A stretch of 64,000 nucleotides of DNA, from assembly GCA_902548635.1 (NCBI GenBank), contig CACCSH010000005.1, forward strand, positions 9,398 to 73,397, written 5' to 3'. The translations under genes and the position numbers were made by a program. Shown here piece by piece: positions 36,409 through 42,029 of this stretch. Below the pieces are notes generated by a model. The model did not search any database. It saw only the letters and a program-made list of their open reading frames with translations, and had not been told where the DNA came from. This DNA is from an uncultured SAR116 cluster alpha proteobacterium. GTDB taxonomy: Bacteria; Pseudomonadota; Alphaproteobacteria; Puniceispirillales; Marisalimonadaceae. Every line of letters starts with the position of its first letter. The stretch's first letter is position 1.

Positions 36409-36681
36409 TTACTTTCCTGGTTTAGCTCTATAAAAAACTTTAATGAAACGTATTTGATGCACTAATTCTGCTTTTAGTTTTTGTTGTATTTTTAATACAT
36501 AGATTTAACGCTCATTTTTATTGCCACCCCTAATAAGAATTTTTATGAGTTCATGAGAAACATCAATTTCAGTAAGAACAGCATTAGTAAGACCATTTTT
36601 ACCAACCATGATAACAGGTTAAAGTGAGTAACCTTTTTTTCGTAATATTTTCTATTCAATATTTGAAAGATTTTTTTTCAT
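36409..36681 (-). pseudogene. yhbY: YhbY/CRM ribosome-assembly RNA-binding protein pseudogene
   Basis: MKKNLSNIE*KILRKKGYSL*PVIMVGKNGLTNAVLTEIDVSHELIKILIRGGNKNER*IYVLKIQQKLKAELVHQIRFIKVFYRAKPGK*; three in-frame stops. Confidence 0.88.
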
Positions 36682-36794: not shown

Positions 36795-36802
36795 GTATTA
36801 AT

Positions 36803-37213
36803 ATGATAAAAAAATCTAAATTAACAAATCCGCTTGAAAGAAGAAGAGCTCAATTAGGATACAGTCAGCAAGATATGTCTGAACTTCTTGGTATTACTCA
36901 ATCGCAATATTCTAGAATTGAAAAAGGCAAAACTGATGTTAATAAACATATTAAGAAATTATCAAAAATATTTAGCTGTGAACCTAATGAAGTTTTTCAG
37001 GGAAAAATACTAAGGGAAATAGACGATGATTTTCTGAACAATCAAACTAATTCTTTTCAAAGGATTTACCACGATAGAAAACCAGGTTTTGTGAATTTAA
37101 AAATTGAAGGTTGGTTCACAAAGAAACAAATAAGCAAAAATTATGAAATGCTTATTAAAGAATTTGATGAGTGGAAGATTAATGAAAATGGAATTAGATG
37201 GAAATATAAATAA
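36803..37213 (+). CDS. XRE/Cro-C1 HTH transcriptional regulator
   Basis: RRAQLGYSQQDMSELLGITQSQYSRIEKG. Confidence 0.88.
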   Translation: MIKKSKLTNPLERRRAQLGYSQQDMSELLGITQSQYSRIEKGKTDVNKHIKKLSKIFSCEPNEVFQGKILREIDDDFLNNQTNSFQRIYHDRKPGFVNLKIEGWFTKKQISKNYEMLIKEFDEWKINENGIRWKYK

Positions 37214-37236
37214 AGATAATTATTTTTTTTACTTAT

Positions 37237-37740
37237 TCAAATTTTATTCTTGTTAAGTTTCTTATCATAATAGGTTTGATATTTTTCAGATAATACATTC
37301 ATATTTTTAAAAAAATCAATCTCTGAATATGCTTTACAGCTTCTACGATTAAATATTTTAGTTTTTGTTATGTTCATTTTGCTCAATATTAACGTTTTCC
37401 TATCTAATACGTATGCATAAATATTTAGACTATCTTTATAAGTCCACTTAATTTCGTTTAGGTCGAGATTAAATCTTTTTTTCTTTCTCAGACTGGTTTG
37501 AAGGTTCTCACTCACTTTTATATTATCTCCAATTTTGCTTAAATAATATATTGCTACTTTATTTGTTTTGAAATGAAATCCAATTTCAGTAGGTTTTTTA
37601 TTAGCTAAGTATGAAGAAGGATCTAAATGCCTTACCTTACAATCTAAGCATTCACAGATTATTCCTTTACCATCAACACTTCCAAAAGAAGGTAAAGAGT
37701 AGAATAAAAATATAATTGTTGTGGATATAAGTTTTATCAT
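37237..37740 (-). CDS. Hypothetical secreted protein with CxCxxC motif
   Basis: N-terminal signal-like peptide, GIICECLDC, later Cys, ends NKI. Confidence 0.7.
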   Translation of the reverse strand: MIKLISTTIIFLFYSLPSFGSVDGKGIICECLDCKVRHLDPSSYLANKKPTEIGFHFKTNKVAIYYLSKIGDNIKVSENLQTSLRKKKRFNLDLNEIKWTYKDSLNIYAYVLDRKTLILSKMNITKTKIFNRRSCKAYSEIDFFKNMNVLSEKYQTYYDKKLNKNKI

Positions 37741-37882
37741 ATTAATTAAATAATGAGAGAAACTGAGAATACAATATAAACTCTATAATTAATAAAAAAT
37801 AATGATATCTCCAAAATTTCTATTTGTCTAACACATATTCAATATCACTTTTACTGATACTAAAACTAATTGAATGGTTATA

Positions 37883-38205
37883 TTATATTATTTTTAATTT
37901 AATTCTCAAGTTTTCATTTTTAGGTTTATTTCTTATACTTTCTTTTATTAGAAATCTTTTTCTTTTTAAGAATAGAAAATACATGAGTGTTTTTTTGTCC
38001 GTCCTCTGGTTGTTTAGTATCCATGTTCATTTAACCAATAAGAATTCATTCTATAACCCATTCCAGAGTCATGGAGAGACTTAATGCAGTCGTGCAGTTC
38101 CTCTTGTTCTGGAGTGTATTTCTCATTCTGTTTGTAGACAAACTGGTTTTTTTTTCACGGAAACACAAAAACAAAGATAATAAGAAAACTTGGGGTTTTT
38201 TATTT
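37883..38205 (-). pseudogene. Decayed paralogue of the 115-aa Recombinase-domain gene
   Basis: Reconstructed KNPKFSYYLCFCVSVKK/NQFVYKQNEKYTPEQEELHDCIKSLHDSGMGYRMNSYWLNEHGY*TTRG/KNTHVFSILKKKK.../PKNENLRIKLKII*; frameshifts and stops; colinear with 38386-38733. Confidence 0.85.
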
Positions 38206-38218
38206 CTTCAGATATAAA

Positions 38219-38392
38219 TTAATTTAATAAATTTTTAAATATCACTTTTTCAGATTTTAATTTTTGTATTTGTGCTGTAGTCATCCAACAAGAAAGATAG
38301 TATGTGCTGTTTGAAATATTTTTTCCTAGATCTGTAGTTGATATTTGATTTATGTTAGGTTGAGGTAGATTAATTTCAATACTATTTAACAT
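38219..38392 (-). CDS. 57-aa hypothetical ORF overlapping the stop of the Recombinase-domain gene
   Basis: MLNSIEINLPQPNINQISTTDLGKNISNSTYYLSCWMTTAQIQKLKSEKVIFKNLLN*; ATGTTAA overlap. Confidence 0.4.
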   Translation of the reverse strand: MLNSIEINLPQPNINQISTTDLGKNISNSTYYLSCWMTTAQIQKLKSEKVIFKNLLN

Positions 38393-38733
38393 ACTCTAAT
38401 TCGTTTCAACTCTAGTCTGAAATTTTGAATTGTGGGTTCAAATCTCTTCGCCATTCTTTCATCAGCAATTTGTTTTTTCTTAAGAATGGAAAAGACATGA
38501 GTATTTTTAAACTCATGTCCTCTAGGTGTTTTGTATCCATGTTTATTCAACCAAGAGGAAATCCTGCGATAACCCAGTCCAAAATTGTGTTTTTCTCTAA
38601 TAATTTCCCACAGTTCTTGTTGGTAAGTAGAATGTCTAATTTTGTTGAGATGTGATGCCTTAATTCTAACTGTAAATGAAATAAAAACTTGAATATTAGG
38701 GTTGTCTAAATACCACCTAACCCCATCATTCAA
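38386..38733 (-). CDS. Stand-alone large-serine-recombinase 'Recombinase' (PF07508-like) DNA-binding domain protein, no catalytic domain
   Basis: GLGYRRISSWLNKHGYKTPRGHEFKNTHVFSILKK fits the G-x4-I-x3-LN-x2-G-x2-T-x-RG-x2-W/F-x4-V-x2-IL pattern; TTG start lies inside the att-like core. Confidence 0.72.
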   Translation of the reverse strand: MNDGVRWYLDNPNIQVFISFTVRIKASHLNKIRHSTYQQELWEIIREKHNFGLGYRRISSWLNKHGYKTPRGHEFKNTHVFSILKKKQIADERMAKRFEPTIQNFRLELKRIRVC

Positions 38734-38743
38734 CAGTTACCGA
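38726..38743 (-). repeat. Second copy of the glmS tail (TCG GTA ACT GTT GAA TGA = SVTVE*), putative att junction
   Basis: glmS ends TCA GTC ACA GTA GAG TAG; the five sense codons differ only at wobble positions. Confidence 0.85.
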
Positions 38744-38751
38744 TTGGATTT

Positions 38752-38765
38752 AACTTACAATTTAA
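38752..38765 (+). repeat. 14-bp inverted repeat, distal arm (AACTTACAATTTAA)
   Basis: Exact reverse complement of 40164-40177. Confidence 0.92.
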
Positions 38766-38785
38766 TATGACCCTAAATTTTTTAT

Positions 38786-39937
38786 TTAGAAATTCTGAGA
38801 CTTAACTAATTTTTTTAAAATTATTTTTTCTAATTTGTGATAATCATAATTCTTTCTAATGGAATTTGTTAATAGAACAGACCCGCTATCCAAATTAACG
38901 ATCATTATTTGTCCACCATGACCTCTTAAAGCAAGATGTTTAAATTTTAAACTTTCATTTCCCATCCAAAAAAAGGCGCCATACCTTCTAAAATCTTTTG
39001 CTTTTCGTTTTTTTGATGAAACACTCTCATCAATTATTTTTTTTAAATAATTTGAAATGCAAGAGTTTGAATTATAATCTTCATATATTAATTTACCAAA
39101 CTTCAAATAATCTTTTCTACTTGAATACATAAAAGCAAAGAATATAGTCCAATCATTTTTATCTCTTAAAAAAATTACGTTGTTGTTGAAACCTGCTCGA
39201 TCAACTATTTTCTTTTTAAAGTAATTACCAATACCATCTGGTAAACTTTTATCCAAGGCAGTTGCTGCAATGTCTGTTAAAATATTTGAATAGTAAAATT
39301 CGTTTTTACTTTTATTTTTTTTATTTGTTTTTTTTAATAAATCCAAAATAGGTATTTTATCAGTTAATACTGGAGCAGCGTATGACATAGATGTTTTGGA
39401 TTTATACCCTCCTTCTTTAAAATAATTCTTATCTCCAGCGGACATATTGATTATTTGTCTAATCGTCGCTCCCTCATAAACAGTGCCCACAGTATCTTTC
39501 AAATACAACTGTATTTGATCATCAATAGATTTAATATAATTATCACAAATTGCGTGACCAATTAAGTAACCAACGTAACTTTTTGCCATGGACATGCTAT
39601 ACATTAATGTATTTTCATTCATTTTATTTTGTGAAATTTCATTAATTTCTATTTCGGAACCATTAAAATATAAAACACTTAACAAATCACTATTTGAAAT
39701 GATTTTTTTTATCTTATTATTAGGTTTTGATATATCCTTAAACTGAATTGGATTGGAAGATTTAGATATGATTTCATTTTTAAAAGATCTTTTTAACTTA
39801 CCAAGTCTATATTCGTGAACAGCAATTGCTTGCTTATTATTTTTTTTTAATTGATGGTCTGAGAATGAGTAAGAGGAATAGAATAAAAGTGATATTAAAA
39901 TAACAAGTTTTAATAGACTATGCACGAGAAACTCCAT
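38786..39937 (-). CDS. Secreted serine hydrolase, beta-lactamase/AmpC-like family
   Basis: Signal peptide, SMAKS (SxxK), YSN (YxN), LINMSAG-like segment, GHGGQ. Confidence 0.85.
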   Translation of the reverse strand: MEFLVHSLLKLVILISLLFYSSYSFSDHQLKKNNKQAIAVHEYRLGKLKRSFKNEIISKSSNPIQFKDISKPNNKIKKIISNSDLLSVLYFNGSEIEINEISQNKMNENTLMYSMSMAKSYVGYLIGHAICDNYIKSIDDQIQLYLKDTVGTVYEGATIRQIINMSAGDKNYFKEGGYKSKTSMSYAAPVLTDKIPILDLLKKTNKKNKSKNEFYYSNILTDIAATALDKSLPDGIGNYFKKKIVDRAGFNNNVIFLRDKNDWTIFFAFMYSSRKDYLKFGKLIYEDYNSNSCISNYLKKIIDESVSSKKRKAKDFRRYGAFFWMGNESLKFKHLALRGHGGQIMIVNLDSGSVLLTNSIRKNYDYHKLEKIILKKLVKSQNF

Positions 39938-39976
39938 ATTAGTTAATATGTTAAATATTTGAGATAAAAAAATTTG

Positions 39977-40160
39977 TCAATTCATTTTATACATTTTAGG
40001 GATTATGTTTATTTTTTGAACTATGATCTCAACATCTATTTTATTTAGTTGTCTCATAGTTTTAAGAACAGATTTTTTTTAGAATAATTGTCATTTAGAT
40101 AATGAACTAGAGCGTTGGTTCTATGTTTAACAGTAAAACAAATATAGGTAATATACTTGT
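39977..40160 (-). pseudogene. Internally deleted remnant of the same Recombinase-domain gene family
   Basis: YICFTVKHRTNALVHYLNDNYS aligns with YLCFCVSVKKNQFVYKQNEKYT of the 37883-38205 copy; then SVLK in another frame. Confidence 0.55.
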
Positions 40161-40163
40161 TTG

Positions 40164-40177
40164 TTAAATTGTAAGTT
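40164..40177 (-). repeat. 14-bp inverted repeat, glmS-proximal arm
   Basis: TTAAATTGTAAGTT on +; begins 4 nt after the glmS TAG. Confidence 0.92.
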
Positions 40178-40181
40178 GAGA

Positions 40182-42029
40182 CTACTCTACTGTGACTGAC
40201 TTAGCTAAATTCCTTGGTTGATCTACGTCAGTGCCTCTTTCCTTGGCAACGTGATAAGCTAACAACTGAGCAGGAATAGACATCAATAAGGGAGACAATA
40301 AAGATTTAAATTCATTTTCAAATTCAGCTATTTCTATTGTAAAATGTGCAAAATTGGCTTTATCAATACATTTTTTATCCGCAATTAAAATAATTTTTGC
40401 TCCTCTAGAATAAGCTTCTTGTAAATTGCTAATCGCCTTGTCTTCATTACCATCTGATACTAAAAACATTATGACTGGAACATTATCTTCTATAAGTGCA
40501 ATTGGACCATGTTTCATTTCACCTGCAGCAAATCCTTCTGCATGAATATAGCTTATTTCTTTTAATTTTAATGCACCCTCCAGAGCTAGAGGATACAAAA
40601 CACCCCTACCTAGAAAAATCACACTCTTTGAATTTTTTATGTTTTTAGCAATTAATTTAATTTGATTTTCTGTTTCCAACATATTAGCAATAGCACTTGG
40701 TAACAAATTCATAAATTGACATTTTTTTTCAATTTGTGGAGTTCTCAAGTTGTTAAACTTTTTACCTAAACCAACAGCTATTAGAAATAATATTACAAGT
40801 TGGGATGTAAATGATTTTGTACTTGCAACACCTATTTCTGGTCCAACTCTAGTATACAGACTATAATCAACTTCCCTATCAATAGTACTGCCTTCTACGT
40901 TTACAATTGCATTTGTTTTGAGACCTAATTCTTTTCCATACCTCAATGCCATCAGCGTGTCTAAACTTTCACCAGATTGAGAAATGACCAACATTGAACT
41001 TTGACCAAAAATCGAGGGTTTTCTATACCTATATTCTGAAGCAAGATCAACAATGACAGGTATATCCGCAATTTGTTCAATCCAATACTTACCTACCATT
41101 CCAGCGTAATAACTTGTACCTGCAGCGCAAATAATTAAAGTTTTTTTGTTTTCAAAGCCAAATTTATCAAGATCAATTGTTATTTCTGAATTATTTTTAA
41201 CAAAACTTGATGTGGTTTGAGGTAATACTACTGGTTGTTCAAATATTTCTTTTTCCATGAAATGTTTATAACCACCTTTTGTAATCAAACCAATTTCAGC
41301 TTGAATATTGATTATTGTTCTACTCACTTTTTTTAAATTTTTATCAAAAATACTTATGTTGTTACTTCTTAATAATGCATGATCACCGTCTTCTAAATAA
41401 ATTATTCTTTGTGTTAGATGATCTATTGAATGAGCATCAGAACCAATAAAATTTGCATTATCTCCCAACCCTATTGCTAAAGGAGATGAGTTTCTTGAGA
41501 CAAATAATTGGTTTGGGAAATCTACACTCATCGCAACAAAAGCAAATGCACCTTTAATATCTTTAAGCACAAGTCTGCCTGCTTCCAAAAGATCATTGCC
41601 CATTTTAATATATTTCATAAATAAATGAGGTAACACCTCAGTATCTGTCTCACTTCTAAAATTATAACCTAGTGATATTAGTTCTTGTTTTAAACTTTCA
41701 AAGTTTTCTATTATTCCATTATGCACAACAGCTATTTTGTTCTCACTAATTAAAGGATGAGCATTTTCAAAACTTATGTTTCCGTGTGTTGCCCATCTTG
41801 TGTGACCTAAAGCTATAGAATTATCAAAATATAATTTTTCTTTCGTTGATATATCTAACTTTCCAATCAAATTTAATAGTTTGCCTTCAGATTTTATTGT
41901 TTGTAATAATCCTTGTGAAACAGAAGCAATACCTGCTGAGTCATAACCACGATATTCAAGTTTTTTTAGTCCTTCAATAACAAGTTGGCTTGCATTTTCT
42001 TTACCTAAAACAGCAACTACACCACACAT
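40182..42029 (-). CDS. glmS: Glutamine--fructose-6-phosphate aminotransferase
   Basis: MCG, LEYRGYDSAG, GHTRWATHG, HNGIIEN, ASTK, DQPRNLAKSVTVE. Confidence 0.99.
   Translation of the reverse strand: MCGVVAVLGKENASQLVIEGLKKLEYRGYDSAGIASVSQGLLQTIKSEGKLLNLIGKLDISTKEKLYFDNSIALGHTRWATHGNISFENAHPLISENKIAVVHNGIIENFESLKQELISLGYNFRSETDTEVLPHLFMKYIKMGNDLLEAGRLVLKDIKGAFAFVAMSVDFPNQLFVSRNSSPLAIGLGDNANFIGSDAHSIDHLTQRIIYLEDGDHALLRSNNISIFDKNLKKVSRTIINIQAEIGLITKGGYKHFMEKEIFEQPVVLPQTTSSFVKNNSEITIDLDKFGFENKKTLIICAAGTSYYAGMVGKYWIEQIADIPVIVDLASEYRYRKPSIFGQSSMLVISQSGESLDTLMALRYGKELGLKTNAIVNVEGSTIDREVDYSLYTRVGPEIGVASTKSFTSQLVILFLIAVGLGKKFNNLRTPQIEKKCQFMNLLPSAIANMLETENQIKLIAKNIKNSKSVIFLGRGVLYPLALEGALKLKEISYIHAEGFAAGEMKHGPIALIEDNVPVIMFLVSDGNEDKAISNLQEAYSRGAKIILIADKKCIDKANFAHFTIEIAEFENEFKSLLSPLLMSIPAQLLAYHVAKERGTDVDQPRNLAKSVTVE

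Follow-up and report, generated by a model that had tools for sequence, protein, structure and literature searches.

The downstream end of glmS in the analysed window, a stretch of 64 kb, carries a 1,456-bp unit with an exact presence/absence polymorphism in natural populations. Taken as a whole, the evidence presented below is probably best explained by a recombinase-less cassette inserted through a 2-bp crossover, of the kind catalysed by large serine recombinases (LSRs), at an AC dinucleotide inside glmS. The features of the region are collected in Table 1. In metagenome contigs from four runs (X1, X2, X5 and X12) of four studies, position 38735 was joined to 40192, so that precisely 1,456 bp were skipped. 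The ambiguity of this joint was 2 bp, namely the AC, and its flanks contained no mismatches. The joined sequence, ...GTCAGTC-AC-TGTTGAATGA, was the predicted empty site; the depth of the contigs with the empty form was 12.1, 26, 14.4 and 6.3, and that of the cassette contigs about 3.3–7.1. Strain variation at the exact boundaries, which an earlier note made from the sequence alone had set as a test of its reading, is hence present.

In the empty form glmS is followed by the core and then by a gene of the RD-let family (small Recombinase-domain genes). The cassette thus entered no virgin attB, as the earlier note had supposed, but the glmS-proximal junction of an already existing cassette. The reconstructed P-core-P' site expected at the junction of a circular form, for which a search had been proposed, gave zero matches in two exact-pattern scans of JGI metagenome contigs, and no back-joint at the unit ends was present among the mapped metagenome contig joints. 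As contigs drop rare forms and are poorly suited to detecting them, these nulls provide no evidence against a circle.

Table 1. Features of the glmS-proximal array, with positions in the window.
Feature	Position	Strand	Remarks
glmS (glutamine-fructose-6-phosphate aminotransferase), target gene	40182..42029	minus	615 aa, end KSVTVE-stop; ORF list
Proximal junction, attL-like core TCAGTCACAGTAGAGTAG	40182..40199	minus	closes glmS; metagenome contig joint maps here
Cassette left-end arm (P' arm) AACTTACAATTTAA	40164..40177	minus	14 nt from central AC
Decayed remnant of an RD-let gene	39938..40163	minus	about 37 N-terminal codons left (YICFTVKHRTN...)
Cargo gene, secreted or membrane-anchored beta-lactamase-family serine hydrolase	38786..39937	minus	383 aa; PF00144, E 4e-10
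Cassette right-end arm (P arm) TTAAATTGTAAGTT	38752..38765	minus	exact inverted repeat of 40164-40177
Distal junction, attR-like core TCGGTAACTGTTGAATGA, orphan SVTVE-stop	38726..38743	minus	central AC 38737-38736
Putative mobile unit, 1,456 bp	38736..40191 (equivalently 38738-40193)	minus	bounded by the population presence/absence joint
Intact RD-let gene, opens the next older cassette	38386..38733	minus	115 aa; PF07508, E 6e-5
Second RD-let copy, decayed (stops, frameshifts), relic of a still older unit	37880..38217	minus	hmmsearch E 2e-18

The unit is framed by two differently written copies of the same glmS tail. In the proximal core the left 6 nt belong to glmS and the right 10 nt, which restore VE-stop, are cassette-derived, with the AC (40193-40192) between them. 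On the minus strand the glmS stop is followed by TCTC and AACTTACAATTTAA; at the other end TTAAATTGTAAGTT is followed by AAATCCAA and then by TCGGTAACTGTTGAATGA. The S codons of the two tails are 1,456 bp apart, and a perfect 14-bp inverted repeat surrounds both tails, symmetrically about the AC of the Thr codon. In all six frames SVTVE-stop occurs only twice, in the 64-kb window as well as in the whole 2.07 Mb genome, and the 14-mer is present solely as the inverted pair (0.23 matches expected at ≤1 mismatch, 100 shuffles), which excludes chance as the source of these repeats. At the offset common to the whole family, the arms of this cassette are complementary at 16/20 positions with the dyad on the AC, and the right-end arm TTAAATTGTAAGTT was also found in two relatives (G026 and G053) next to different cargo. 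What had been stated about the tails, the inverted repeat, the spacing and the AC positions proved correct to the base. The same is true of the claims that the tails lack identity of tyrosine-integrase length (the longest identical run is 2 nt) and that the GlmS protein is unchanged, the cassette codons restoring VE-stop.

The cargo hydrolase displays, by eye, the motifs SMAK, YSN and HGG (SxxK, YxN, HxG). No homologue above 32% identity was found in 192 genomes of the order, and the best match (32%) lies outside any array; because the same cargo was not found elsewhere, the metagenome joint is the only evidence that the hydrolase cassette is mobile. An hmmsearch with the family profile recognised an RD-let N-terminus in the left 240 bp of the cassette (E 4e-7), so the 'gene remnant' of the earlier note is real and can now be assigned to the hallmark family of these cassettes. 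The second, decayed RD-let copy, marked by a direct repeat (D1, 82% over 65 nt), forms the end of the array, before a conserved 167-aa ORF (37237-37740). A third SVTVE-stop closing the older cassette was looked for and is absent; the array terminates in the decayed RD-let. The backbone beyond it (167-aa ORF/HTH/photolyase) is conserved in relatives, and in the genus, where glmS orthologues are 78–96% identical, glmS and this backbone flank the region on both sides.

The arrangement is not confined to the window. Among 25 glmS loci of relatives, each with at least 3 kb of downstream sequence and mostly picked for RD-let matches, 21 had SVTVE-stop copies beyond that of glmS itself, between one and six in number and always in the orientation of glmS. 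The cassettes between the copies range from 60 to 9,600 bp; most are 0.6–3 kb long and have no integrase, and some units are merely 60 bp with no cargo. The recurrence of the SVTVE-stop/inverted-repeat geometry, on which the earlier reading depended, was confirmed in relatives belonging to three of the four families sampled within the order, as well as in one Cellvibrionaceae chromosome.

The same loci define the position of the exchange. Inverted-repeat ends were recognised in 28 of the 43 cassettes by comparing the 20 nt after the left core with the 20 nt ending 4 nt before the right core (≥13/20 complementary), and the dyad axis fell between the A and the C of the Thr codon in 28/28. Cognate arms had a median complementarity of 15/20, against a mean of 7.2 for non-cognate ones; clear cognate arms were missing in 15/43 site pairs, which implies decay, deletions or rearrangements. 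The wobble bases of Ser and the first Val travel with the upstream arm (16/17 pairs vs 5.1 expected, p = 0.0002) and do not co-segregate with the downstream arm (7/22 vs 6.9 expected). The Thr wobble (13/22 vs 6.0 expected, p = 0.008) and the stop-codon bases (22/22 vs 15.3 expected, p = 0.004) co-segregate with the downstream arm. Since the pairs are related sequences, these p-values overstate independence. The linkage switches between positions 6 and 9 of the array core, TCNGTNACNGTNGAR-stop, and together with the dyad axis confirms the junction at the AC. The repeats, the site geometry, its recurrence in other genomes and the 2-bp exchange interval are thereby shown.

The enzyme can only be inferred. 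An LSR of 565–601 aa with PF00239 and PF07508 domains, a catalytic RVST motif and Cys clusters is encoded at the distal site of full-size elements (8–10 kb) in relatives, which answers the proposed search for resolvase and PF07508 genes near the sites. Its gene lies 0–50 nt before a distal core in G011, G053, G058, G018, G029 and a Cellvibrionaceae chromosome; all complete elements observed have it abutting this core. A single 8.4-kb element fits exactly between glmS and the conserved backbone in G011, and in G053 the LSR reading frame terminates inside the core. A small resolvase gene was found near each of these LSRs, with the LSR directly downstream of it in three elements, and an LSR with 44% identity is present on a SAR86 contig. 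While the adjacency of LSR genes to the sites is shown, LSR catalysis, a circular intermediate and the movement of integrase-less cassettes in trans are inferences. Neither the cassette nor the source genome yielded an LSR in PF07508/PF00239 searches and tblastn with five LSRs, in an assembly only 82% complete. The two small resolvases of the source genome (C16, C38) share 28–32% identity with the element-borne ones and were judged unrelated. As the LSR gene was found only in complete elements of relatives, the 1,456-bp cassette is at best a non-autonomous member of the LSR-element group.

RD-let genes are frequently the first genes of cassettes, consist of the recombinase DNA-binding domain only, and occur behind glmS in all four sampled families of the order. 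The 115-aa protein of the window is a helix-turn-helix protein, kin to the LSR recombinase domain and without a catalytic domain. Its PF07508 score (23.6 bits) exceeds the gathering cut-off of 21.1 and covers only model positions 17–52; relatives score 23.7–30.7 bits. It has 130 metagenomic homologues. The dN/dS is 0.25 against the G053 copy, 0.13–0.38 in five pairs of at least 70% identity, and 0.33 and 0.52 in two more divergent pairs. The 115-aa ORF was also considered as a beheaded integrase; this was rejected, since the ORF and its relatives make up a family of small, intact genes (dN/dS 0.13–0.38 in pairs of at least 70% identity). The AF2 model (pLDDT 86.6) matched residues 165–253 of a serine integrase with Z 6.9, inside the noise range for small helical domains, and hhalign against the LSR alignment matched the expected region with a probability of just 1.5%. 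A sequence-profile search against solved structures returned designed repeat proteins only, and a Foldseek search no match at E < 0.001. The suggestion that RD-let binds DNA at the arms, as a factor supplied by the cassette, is no more than a guess, with both its function and its binding inferred.

In the proposed mechanism, the unit would be a small mobile cassette that encodes no recombinase and contains one serine-hydrolase gene and a decayed RD-let gene. Site-specific recombination would have placed it in the Thr codon, within the last five glmS codons, by a 2-bp crossover at the AC. This dinucleotide would be central to a site of imperfect symmetry, with the two cassette ends as its outer arms, as in an LSR attP. 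GlmS would remain unchanged because the cassette supplies its own synonymous codons downstream of the AC, and the original glmS tail would be displaced and left behind as the orphan SVTVE-stop. Counted from glmS, the stack would comprise the hydrolase cassette (the newest), the RD-let cassette and the decayed RD-let relic, and glmS would be followed by platforms of such stacked cassettes both in this alphaproteobacterial order and in gammaproteobacteria (Cellvibrionaceae). The most likely enzyme would be an LSR of the 565–601-aa type, accompanied by a small resolvase in relatives, which may act in trans or may already be lost. The target of the cassette consisted of a glmS half and the arm of the preceding cassette, which makes it attL-like. 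Sites of this kind are not used by canonical phage LSRs, and the model has to assume a relaxed, Ccr-like pairing. The LSR-type integration put forward in the earlier note is thus largely supported, with the circular form and catalysis in trans still inferred.

We cannot exclude that the unit is a relic, in which a complete LSR-bearing element integrated and lost its recombinase module by internal deletion, so that the 1,456-bp unit was never mobile and no mobilisation in trans took place. Decay is indeed common in the arrays (RD-let pseudogenes, the 15/43 cassettes without cognate arms, the cargo-less 60-bp units), and the source genome lacks a detectable LSR. Nevertheless, neither arm has a mismatch, and in four studies the empty form lacks precisely these 1,456 bp, whereas insertion followed by internal deletion demands two events sparing both ends. 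Moreover, integrase-less cassettes of 0.6–3 kb prevail in relatives, as fits small units being the normal currency of the system, and the relic scenario seems unlikely.

Two further explanations find still less support. The junctions might be made by a tyrosine recombinase, either integron-like or XerC/D-dependent as in IMEX/CTX-type elements, with the LSR genes as passengers. Several PF00589 genes are present in all but one of 61 searched genomes, and the imperfect palindromes at the sites of these cassette arrays are reminiscent of attC. However, the exchange interval is only 2 bp, and the bases on either side vary inside any 6–8 bp overlap. None of the best 150 PF00589 matches from the 61 genomes lies in a glmS array, LSR genes abut the distal core of complete elements, and the core has no GTTRRRY or dif-like sequence, which makes this option very improbable. 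Alternatively, homologous recombination between conserved flanks could swap whole variable regions, the repeated tails being by-products. In the genus, the region is flanked on both sides by conserved genes, glmS and the 167-aa/HTH/photolyase backbone, as is usual for replacement flexible islands. Yet the repeated same-strand SVTVE-stop copies, the arms pairing across each cassette at a fixed offset and the deletion joint with only 2 bp of shared sequence would all stay unexplained, and we regard this account as highly doubtful, though homologous recombination may well move whole arrays in addition.

Cassette insertion by an LSR-type crossover therefore remains the preferred reading. According to the population data, a streamlined marine bacterium acquires and sheds individual genes at a single dinucleotide within an essential gene, a precise, integron-like route to the flexible genome in which another class of enzyme is at work. 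At least two proteobacterial classes share the system, as the Cellvibrionaceae chromosome also has complete LSR elements and repeated tails. A bolder reading, no more than a possibility at present, is that the end of glmS serves, in many marine bacteria, as the docking site for an integron counterpart run by serine recombinases. In it, single-gene cassettes of 0.6–3 kb without a catalytic recombinase of their own would be captured and released singly at the AC by LSRs acting in trans, and RD-let would be a new accessory subunit. Being under purifying selection, RD-let would in that case read the arms of its own cassette and license or block recombination; if true, such a role could explain the use of sites with very different arms and of attL-like targets. 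The free-standing recombinase-domain family is of mechanistic interest, and the arrays are a test case for tandem-array building by serine recombinases. Of practical interest, the system supplies natural LSR/att pairs that target a safe-harbour sequence of universal conservation and tolerate any wobble base in it.

No description of the glmS cassette system was found in the full-text literature searched, so the earlier statement that none is known holds in part, close analogues being discussed below. The single glmS-flanked island retrieved, from Methylophilaceae (PMC10872708), is a tRNA-Met/XerD tycheposon merely ending at glmS. For Tn7 and Tn7-like elements at attTn7, the conserved 3' end of glmS is a safe harbour as well, but Tn7 transposes by means of TnsABCD to a point about 25 bp past the stop codon and leaves a 5-bp duplication. 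In the present case the exchange occurs inside the coding sequence at one dinucleotide of the Thr codon, with no target duplication beyond the recoded tail and no Tns genes, the only genes of the unit being the hydrolase and the RD-let remnant; the claim of the Tn7 locus with a different mechanism is upheld. With phage large serine integrases (phiC31, Bxb1, A118/LI) the system shares a site of about 50–58 bp, distal inverted arms symmetric about the crossover in the reconstructed attP, exchange at a central non-palindromic dinucleotide, and the domain order resolvase, recombinase domain, zinc ribbon/coiled coil. The phage enzymes pair attP with attB only, whereas the attL-like hybrid target and the arrays imply broader pairing, and the glmS cassettes contain no phage genes. 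Integrons (IntI, attI, attC) resemble it as a fixed-site platform that accumulates small, mostly single-gene, recombinase-less cassettes with imperfect palindromic sites, the newest being proximal and read-through expression from an upstream promoter possible. They differ in enzyme class and site sequence (TCNGTNACNGTNGAR-stop here, not GTTRRRY) and in the 2-bp crossover on a double-stranded site with no evidence of attC folding; no array PF00589 gene was seen among the 150 best matches, and in place of attI the cassettes adjoin the end of an essential gene.

The closest parallels come from two other systems. The ssrA-specific genomic islands of Dehalococcoides with DsiB/DsiA (McMurdie et al. 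2011, PMC3146451) also stand in tandem behind an essential single-copy gene, each bounded by a 3'-end repeat, and encode a CcrB-like LSR and a second, smaller serine recombinase (PMC3146451). The LSR frame can run into the att site, as in G053, and some islands without an integration module were interpreted as mobilisable in cis or in trans (PMC3146451). They target an RNA gene whose 20-bp repeat is exact, whereas here a protein-coding tail is kept only at codon positions 1–2; their integration module is located at attL and not at the distal end, and they are larger and without an RD-let family. SCC/SCCmec and pseudo-SCC composite islands of staphylococci, moved by the LSRs CcrAB/CcrC at rlmH (orfX), likewise target the 3' end of a conserved single-copy gene with the protein preserved (general knowledge and PMC3146451). 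They show, as the glmS cassettes do, direct repeats of the gene end at the junctions, inverted repeats at the element ends, and tandem stacks in which some units lack a recombinase and are presumed to be mobilised in trans, and both systems need an LSR with relaxed site pairing; tandem units at a conserved gene 3' end, bounded by end repeats and partly without a recombinase, are present here too. The differences lie in the target (glmS, not rlmH), in units that are mostly 0.6–3 kb single-gene cassettes rather than islands of 20–60 kb, in one LSR plus a small HTH resolvase instead of CcrA plus CcrB (the LSRs were not compared with Ccr proteins), in the RD-let at the cassette start, which has no SCC counterpart, and in the hosts, which are marine proteobacteria. 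With SCCmec and the Dehalococcoides ssrA islands as close analogues, the principle behind the glmS cassettes is not unprecedented.

The unit behind glmS in the window lies between two copies of an 18-nt core, which encodes SVTVE and a stop codon and carries a central AC in the Thr codon. The earlier note had described the two tails and the inverted repeats beside them, and this description held base for base, confirming the observation; its interpretation, the integration of a small circle at AC by a large serine recombinase (LSR), is supported, subject to corrections that include the nature of the target. The two SVTVE-stop tails mismatch at each third codon position and also differ in the stop codon, and a six-frame search of the window and of the full 2.07 Mb assembly found no further copies. 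The 14-mer of the cassette ends occurs solely as this inverted pair, the chance expectation being 0.23 matches. Between the repeats the cassette carries a 383-aa serine hydrolase of the beta-lactamase family (PF00144, E 4e-10) and, at its left end, a decayed small gene with about 37 codons remaining, the third copy of an RD-let, a small gene with a recombinase DNA-binding domain only.

Positions of the features in the window and in the glmS loci of relatives (L numbers; rc, reverse-complement coordinates; G numbers, genomes of relatives)
Feature	Position	Strand	Details
glmS	40182-42029	minus	615 aa; C-terminus KSVTVE-stop
Proximal core TCAGTCACAGTAGAGTAG	40199-40182	minus	18 nt, end of glmS; then TCTC
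Left-end repeat AACTTACAATTTAA	40177-40164	minus	directly after TCTC
Right-end repeat TTAAATTGTAAGTT	38765-38752	minus	then AAATCCAA, then second core
Second SVTVE-stop TCGGTAACTGTTGAATGA	38743-38726	minus	1,456 bp beyond first
RD-let ORF	38386-38733	minus	115 aa; start inside second core
Second RD-let copy	~37880-38217		decayed
YhbY/CRM-like frame	36520-36640	minus	..MVGKNGLTNAVLTEIDVSHELIKILIRGG..; no start, stop upstream
60-bp units	L022:629-706; L065 4754-4831 (rc)		two cores, 42 nt of paired arms, no cargo
Inverted-repeat flanks around one core	L020:7231; L020:2179; L029 2783 (rc); L030 3451 (rc)		12-17 of 20 paired
Half-sites beside opposite-strand RD-lets	L017:3900-3960; L019:6680-6700		..GAT-AC-NGTGGA..stop + arm
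LSR of G011	L038, G011:C7 (contig)		570 aa
LSR of G053	L032:8416-10158		580 aa; ..EPLGNS-stop
LSRs of G058, G018, G029			565-601 aa
Cellvibrionaceae LSR	L053 9995-11764

The stretch is contained, whole or in part, in 20 public runs from 11 studies, and the Logan contigs of runs X1, X2, X5 and X12, marine metagenomes from four different studies, were aligned to window positions 36800-41200. All four runs hold a contig joining 38735 to 40192 and skipping 1,456 bp, with two letters fitting either side. The empty site predicted in the earlier note was thus found; it reads glmS...TCAGTC-AC-TGTTGAATGA, with the RD-let gene next, and its flank on the RD-let side equals the window sequence (0 other letters over 263-771 nt). 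The contig depth of the empty form versus the inside of the cassette was 12.1 and about 3.1-5.0 in X1, 26 and about 5.8-6.1 in X2, 14.4 and about 6.6-7.1 in X5, and 6.3 and about 3.3-5.6 in X12. Empty and occupied forms clearly coexist, and contig depth is not to be equated with the share of cells. In three of the four runs several contigs part from the window sequence precisely where glmS stops (loose ends 40181-40183), which probably reflects other strains with other cassettes there. Since in the empty form the RD-let gene comes after the glmS core, the cassette's point of entry was the glmS-proximal junction of a pre-existing cassette. It was not a virgin attB, which corrects the earlier note.

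Extra SVTVE-stop copies, one to six per locus and every one on the glmS strand, were present in 21 of the 25 relatives' loci with at least 3 kb of downstream sequence. These came from 33 retrieved glmS loci, chosen mostly for RD-let hits, so the counts are not an unbiased prevalence. The copies delimit 43 units, with lengths from 60 to 9,622 bp and a median of 1,735 bp. Past the arrays lies a backbone common to the window and most relatives of the genus: a 167-aa ORF, an HTH gene, a photolyase-like gene, DUF3429, two methyltransferase-like genes and LptD, the last assigned by reading the sequence and the others by domain matches. In the window, the spacer that separates the HTH gene from the photolyase-like gene holds a short frame resembling a YhbY/CRM-domain RNA-binding protein, probably a gene fragment.

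For each unit, the 20 nt after the left core were compared at all offsets with the sequence before the right core. At least 13 of 20 positions were complementary in 28 of the 43 units (16/20 in the window's cassette), and the best offset was identical in all 28, the dyad axis falling between A and C in the Thr codon. Cognate ends reached a median of 15/20, non-cognate ends a mean of 7.2. The ends are complementary at a fixed offset; therefore, joined via one core, they form an imperfect palindrome centred on AC, and the 58-bp attP reconstructed in the earlier note matches it. Two 60-bp "cassettes" were also seen in the arrays, which may be fully deleted units or else minimal circles consisting of att only. 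At four sites the flanks of the same core are mutual inverted repeats and resemble intact attP-like sites; neighbouring cassettes with a common arm family, or fused circles, could account for them.

The position of the exchange was examined on the premise that, with exchange at AC, the variable bases on the left follow the upstream arm and those on the right the downstream arm. Among 17 site pairs with a common upstream arm (≥90%) and no common downstream arm, agreement was high at the Val1 (16/17, expected 5.1, p 0.0002) and Ser wobbles (13/17, expected 4.5, p 0.0002) and near expectation at the Val2 wobble (6/17, expected 6.3, p 0.64) and the second base of the stop (11/17, expected 11.3, p 0.65). 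The separation in this group is not clean, because the Thr (9/17, p = 0.04) and Glu wobbles (13/17, p = 0.01) also somewhat exceed expectation. Among 22 pairs with only the downstream arm in common, the Thr wobble (13/22, expected 6.0, p 0.008) and the second stop base (22/22, expected 15.3, p 0.004) were linked to the arm, and the Val1 wobble was not (7/22, expected 6.9, p 0.53). These p-values are generous, as the compared pairs are related sequences; despite this, linkage clearly switches between core positions 6 and 9.

Beginning within the second core, the 115-aa ORF shows a partial match to the Pfam Recombinase domain (PF07508). Its reading as a beheaded integrase was rejected, as it is one member of a family of intact, free-standing proteins of 100-180 aa, the RD-lets, in which the "Recombinase" domain of serine recombinases is represented by its helix-turn-helix part alone. 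Counting the window's own genome, RD-lets occur in 33 of 61 related genomes, often in several copies per locus, and their coordinates place them immediately after glmS in each of the four families of the order that were sampled; 130 metagenomic homologues bear no informative name. An RD-let typically opens a cassette (at 24 of 82 sites one lies within 150 nt downstream) and lies on the glmS strand in 47 of 62 copies (L017-L032 and other loci). Purifying selection is evident from dN/dS values of 0.13-0.38 in the five pairs with 70% identity or more; two pairs that diverge further gave 0.33 and 0.52, and two others were saturated at synonymous sites. The structure model (pLDDT 86.6, confident) predicts a three-helix core similar to the recombinase domain of a serine integrase (Z 6.9, 67 residues), with other helix-turn-helix domains about equally similar. 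In two loci, opposite-strand RD-lets adjoin half-sites with only the right half of the core, the left half being replaced.

A PF00239 search of the 61 genomes yielded long open frames of 573-602 aa, whose positions were seen in the relatives' loci. In G011 the glmS core and a second core, after which the backbone follows, are the exact limits of an 8.4-kb element. Its gene content ends with a 196-aa resolvase and the LSR, 37 nt short of the distal core. The G053 frame ends inside the distal core, and the G058, G018 and G029 genes are arranged as in these two genomes. The RVST catalytic motif is invariant among the five aligned LSRs, which also have Cys clusters; both of the two scanned against Pfam contain PF00239 and PF07508. 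The G053 frame continues past the crossover point and reaches its stop within the core, in a different frame; its final two codons therefore differ between integrated and excised forms. A scan with the LSR alignment (one genome per species) revealed relatives in a SAR86 single-cell contig and a complete Cellvibrionaceae chromosome (OZ243947.1). The latter carries an array of at least 29 kb after glmS with three recombinase-type frames, two of them LSR-sized (548 and 570 aa), each ending just before a (S/T)VTVE-stop copy. One LSR of this gammaproteobacterial chromosome and that of G011, an alphaproteobacterial MAG, have near-identical C-termini (KRNRVKKKQR.G) and an identical arm and core context (TTYFISSIQSVTVE-stop), a tentative hint of either a recent inter-class transfer or a binning error. 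No LSR was found in the window's own genome (82% complete assembly); the two small resolvases encoded there are not related to those borne by the elements.

In the best reading, a small circular cassette would integrate at AC by an LSR-type reaction. Its half-core would bring synonymous V-E-stop codons, leaving GlmS unchanged, and the displaced glmS tail would mark the far end of the cassette. The element-side left half-core retains TC.GT. without a coding role, which could fit, by inference, a recombinase reading only positions invariant in glmS genes. LSR catalysis, the circular form, mobilisation in trans and the accepted site pairs are all inferred and none has been shown; the metagenome contig scans for the circle junction found no circular form. 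An attL-like target would require Ccr-like rather than phage-like LSR behaviour. Alternatively, the 1,456-bp unit could be what deletion left of a larger element; this is not ruled out but is unlikely, being less economical given the perfect arms and the exact empty site. An identical overlap of 6-8 bp is lacking, and this speaks against a canonical tyrosine recombinase. None of the best 150 tyrosine recombinase matches in the 61 genomes lay in the arrays.

No published description of the glmS cassette system was found in the literature searched. Its logic is that of SCCmec at rlmH and the Dehalococcoides ssrA islands (PMC3146451): all three combine an essential single-copy target, a gene-end repeat at each junction, tandem accretion, an LSR with a second, smaller serine recombinase, and units devoid of the integration module. 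The entry of the LSR frame into the site in G053 likewise has a counterpart in Dehalococcoides DsiB. Unlike in these systems, the glmS target is a protein-coding tail conserved only at codon positions 1-2, the RD-let is a hallmark gene, and the hosts are different. In cassette size and single-gene content the glmS system instead resembles integrons, whereas with Tn7 it has nothing but the glmS harbour in common.
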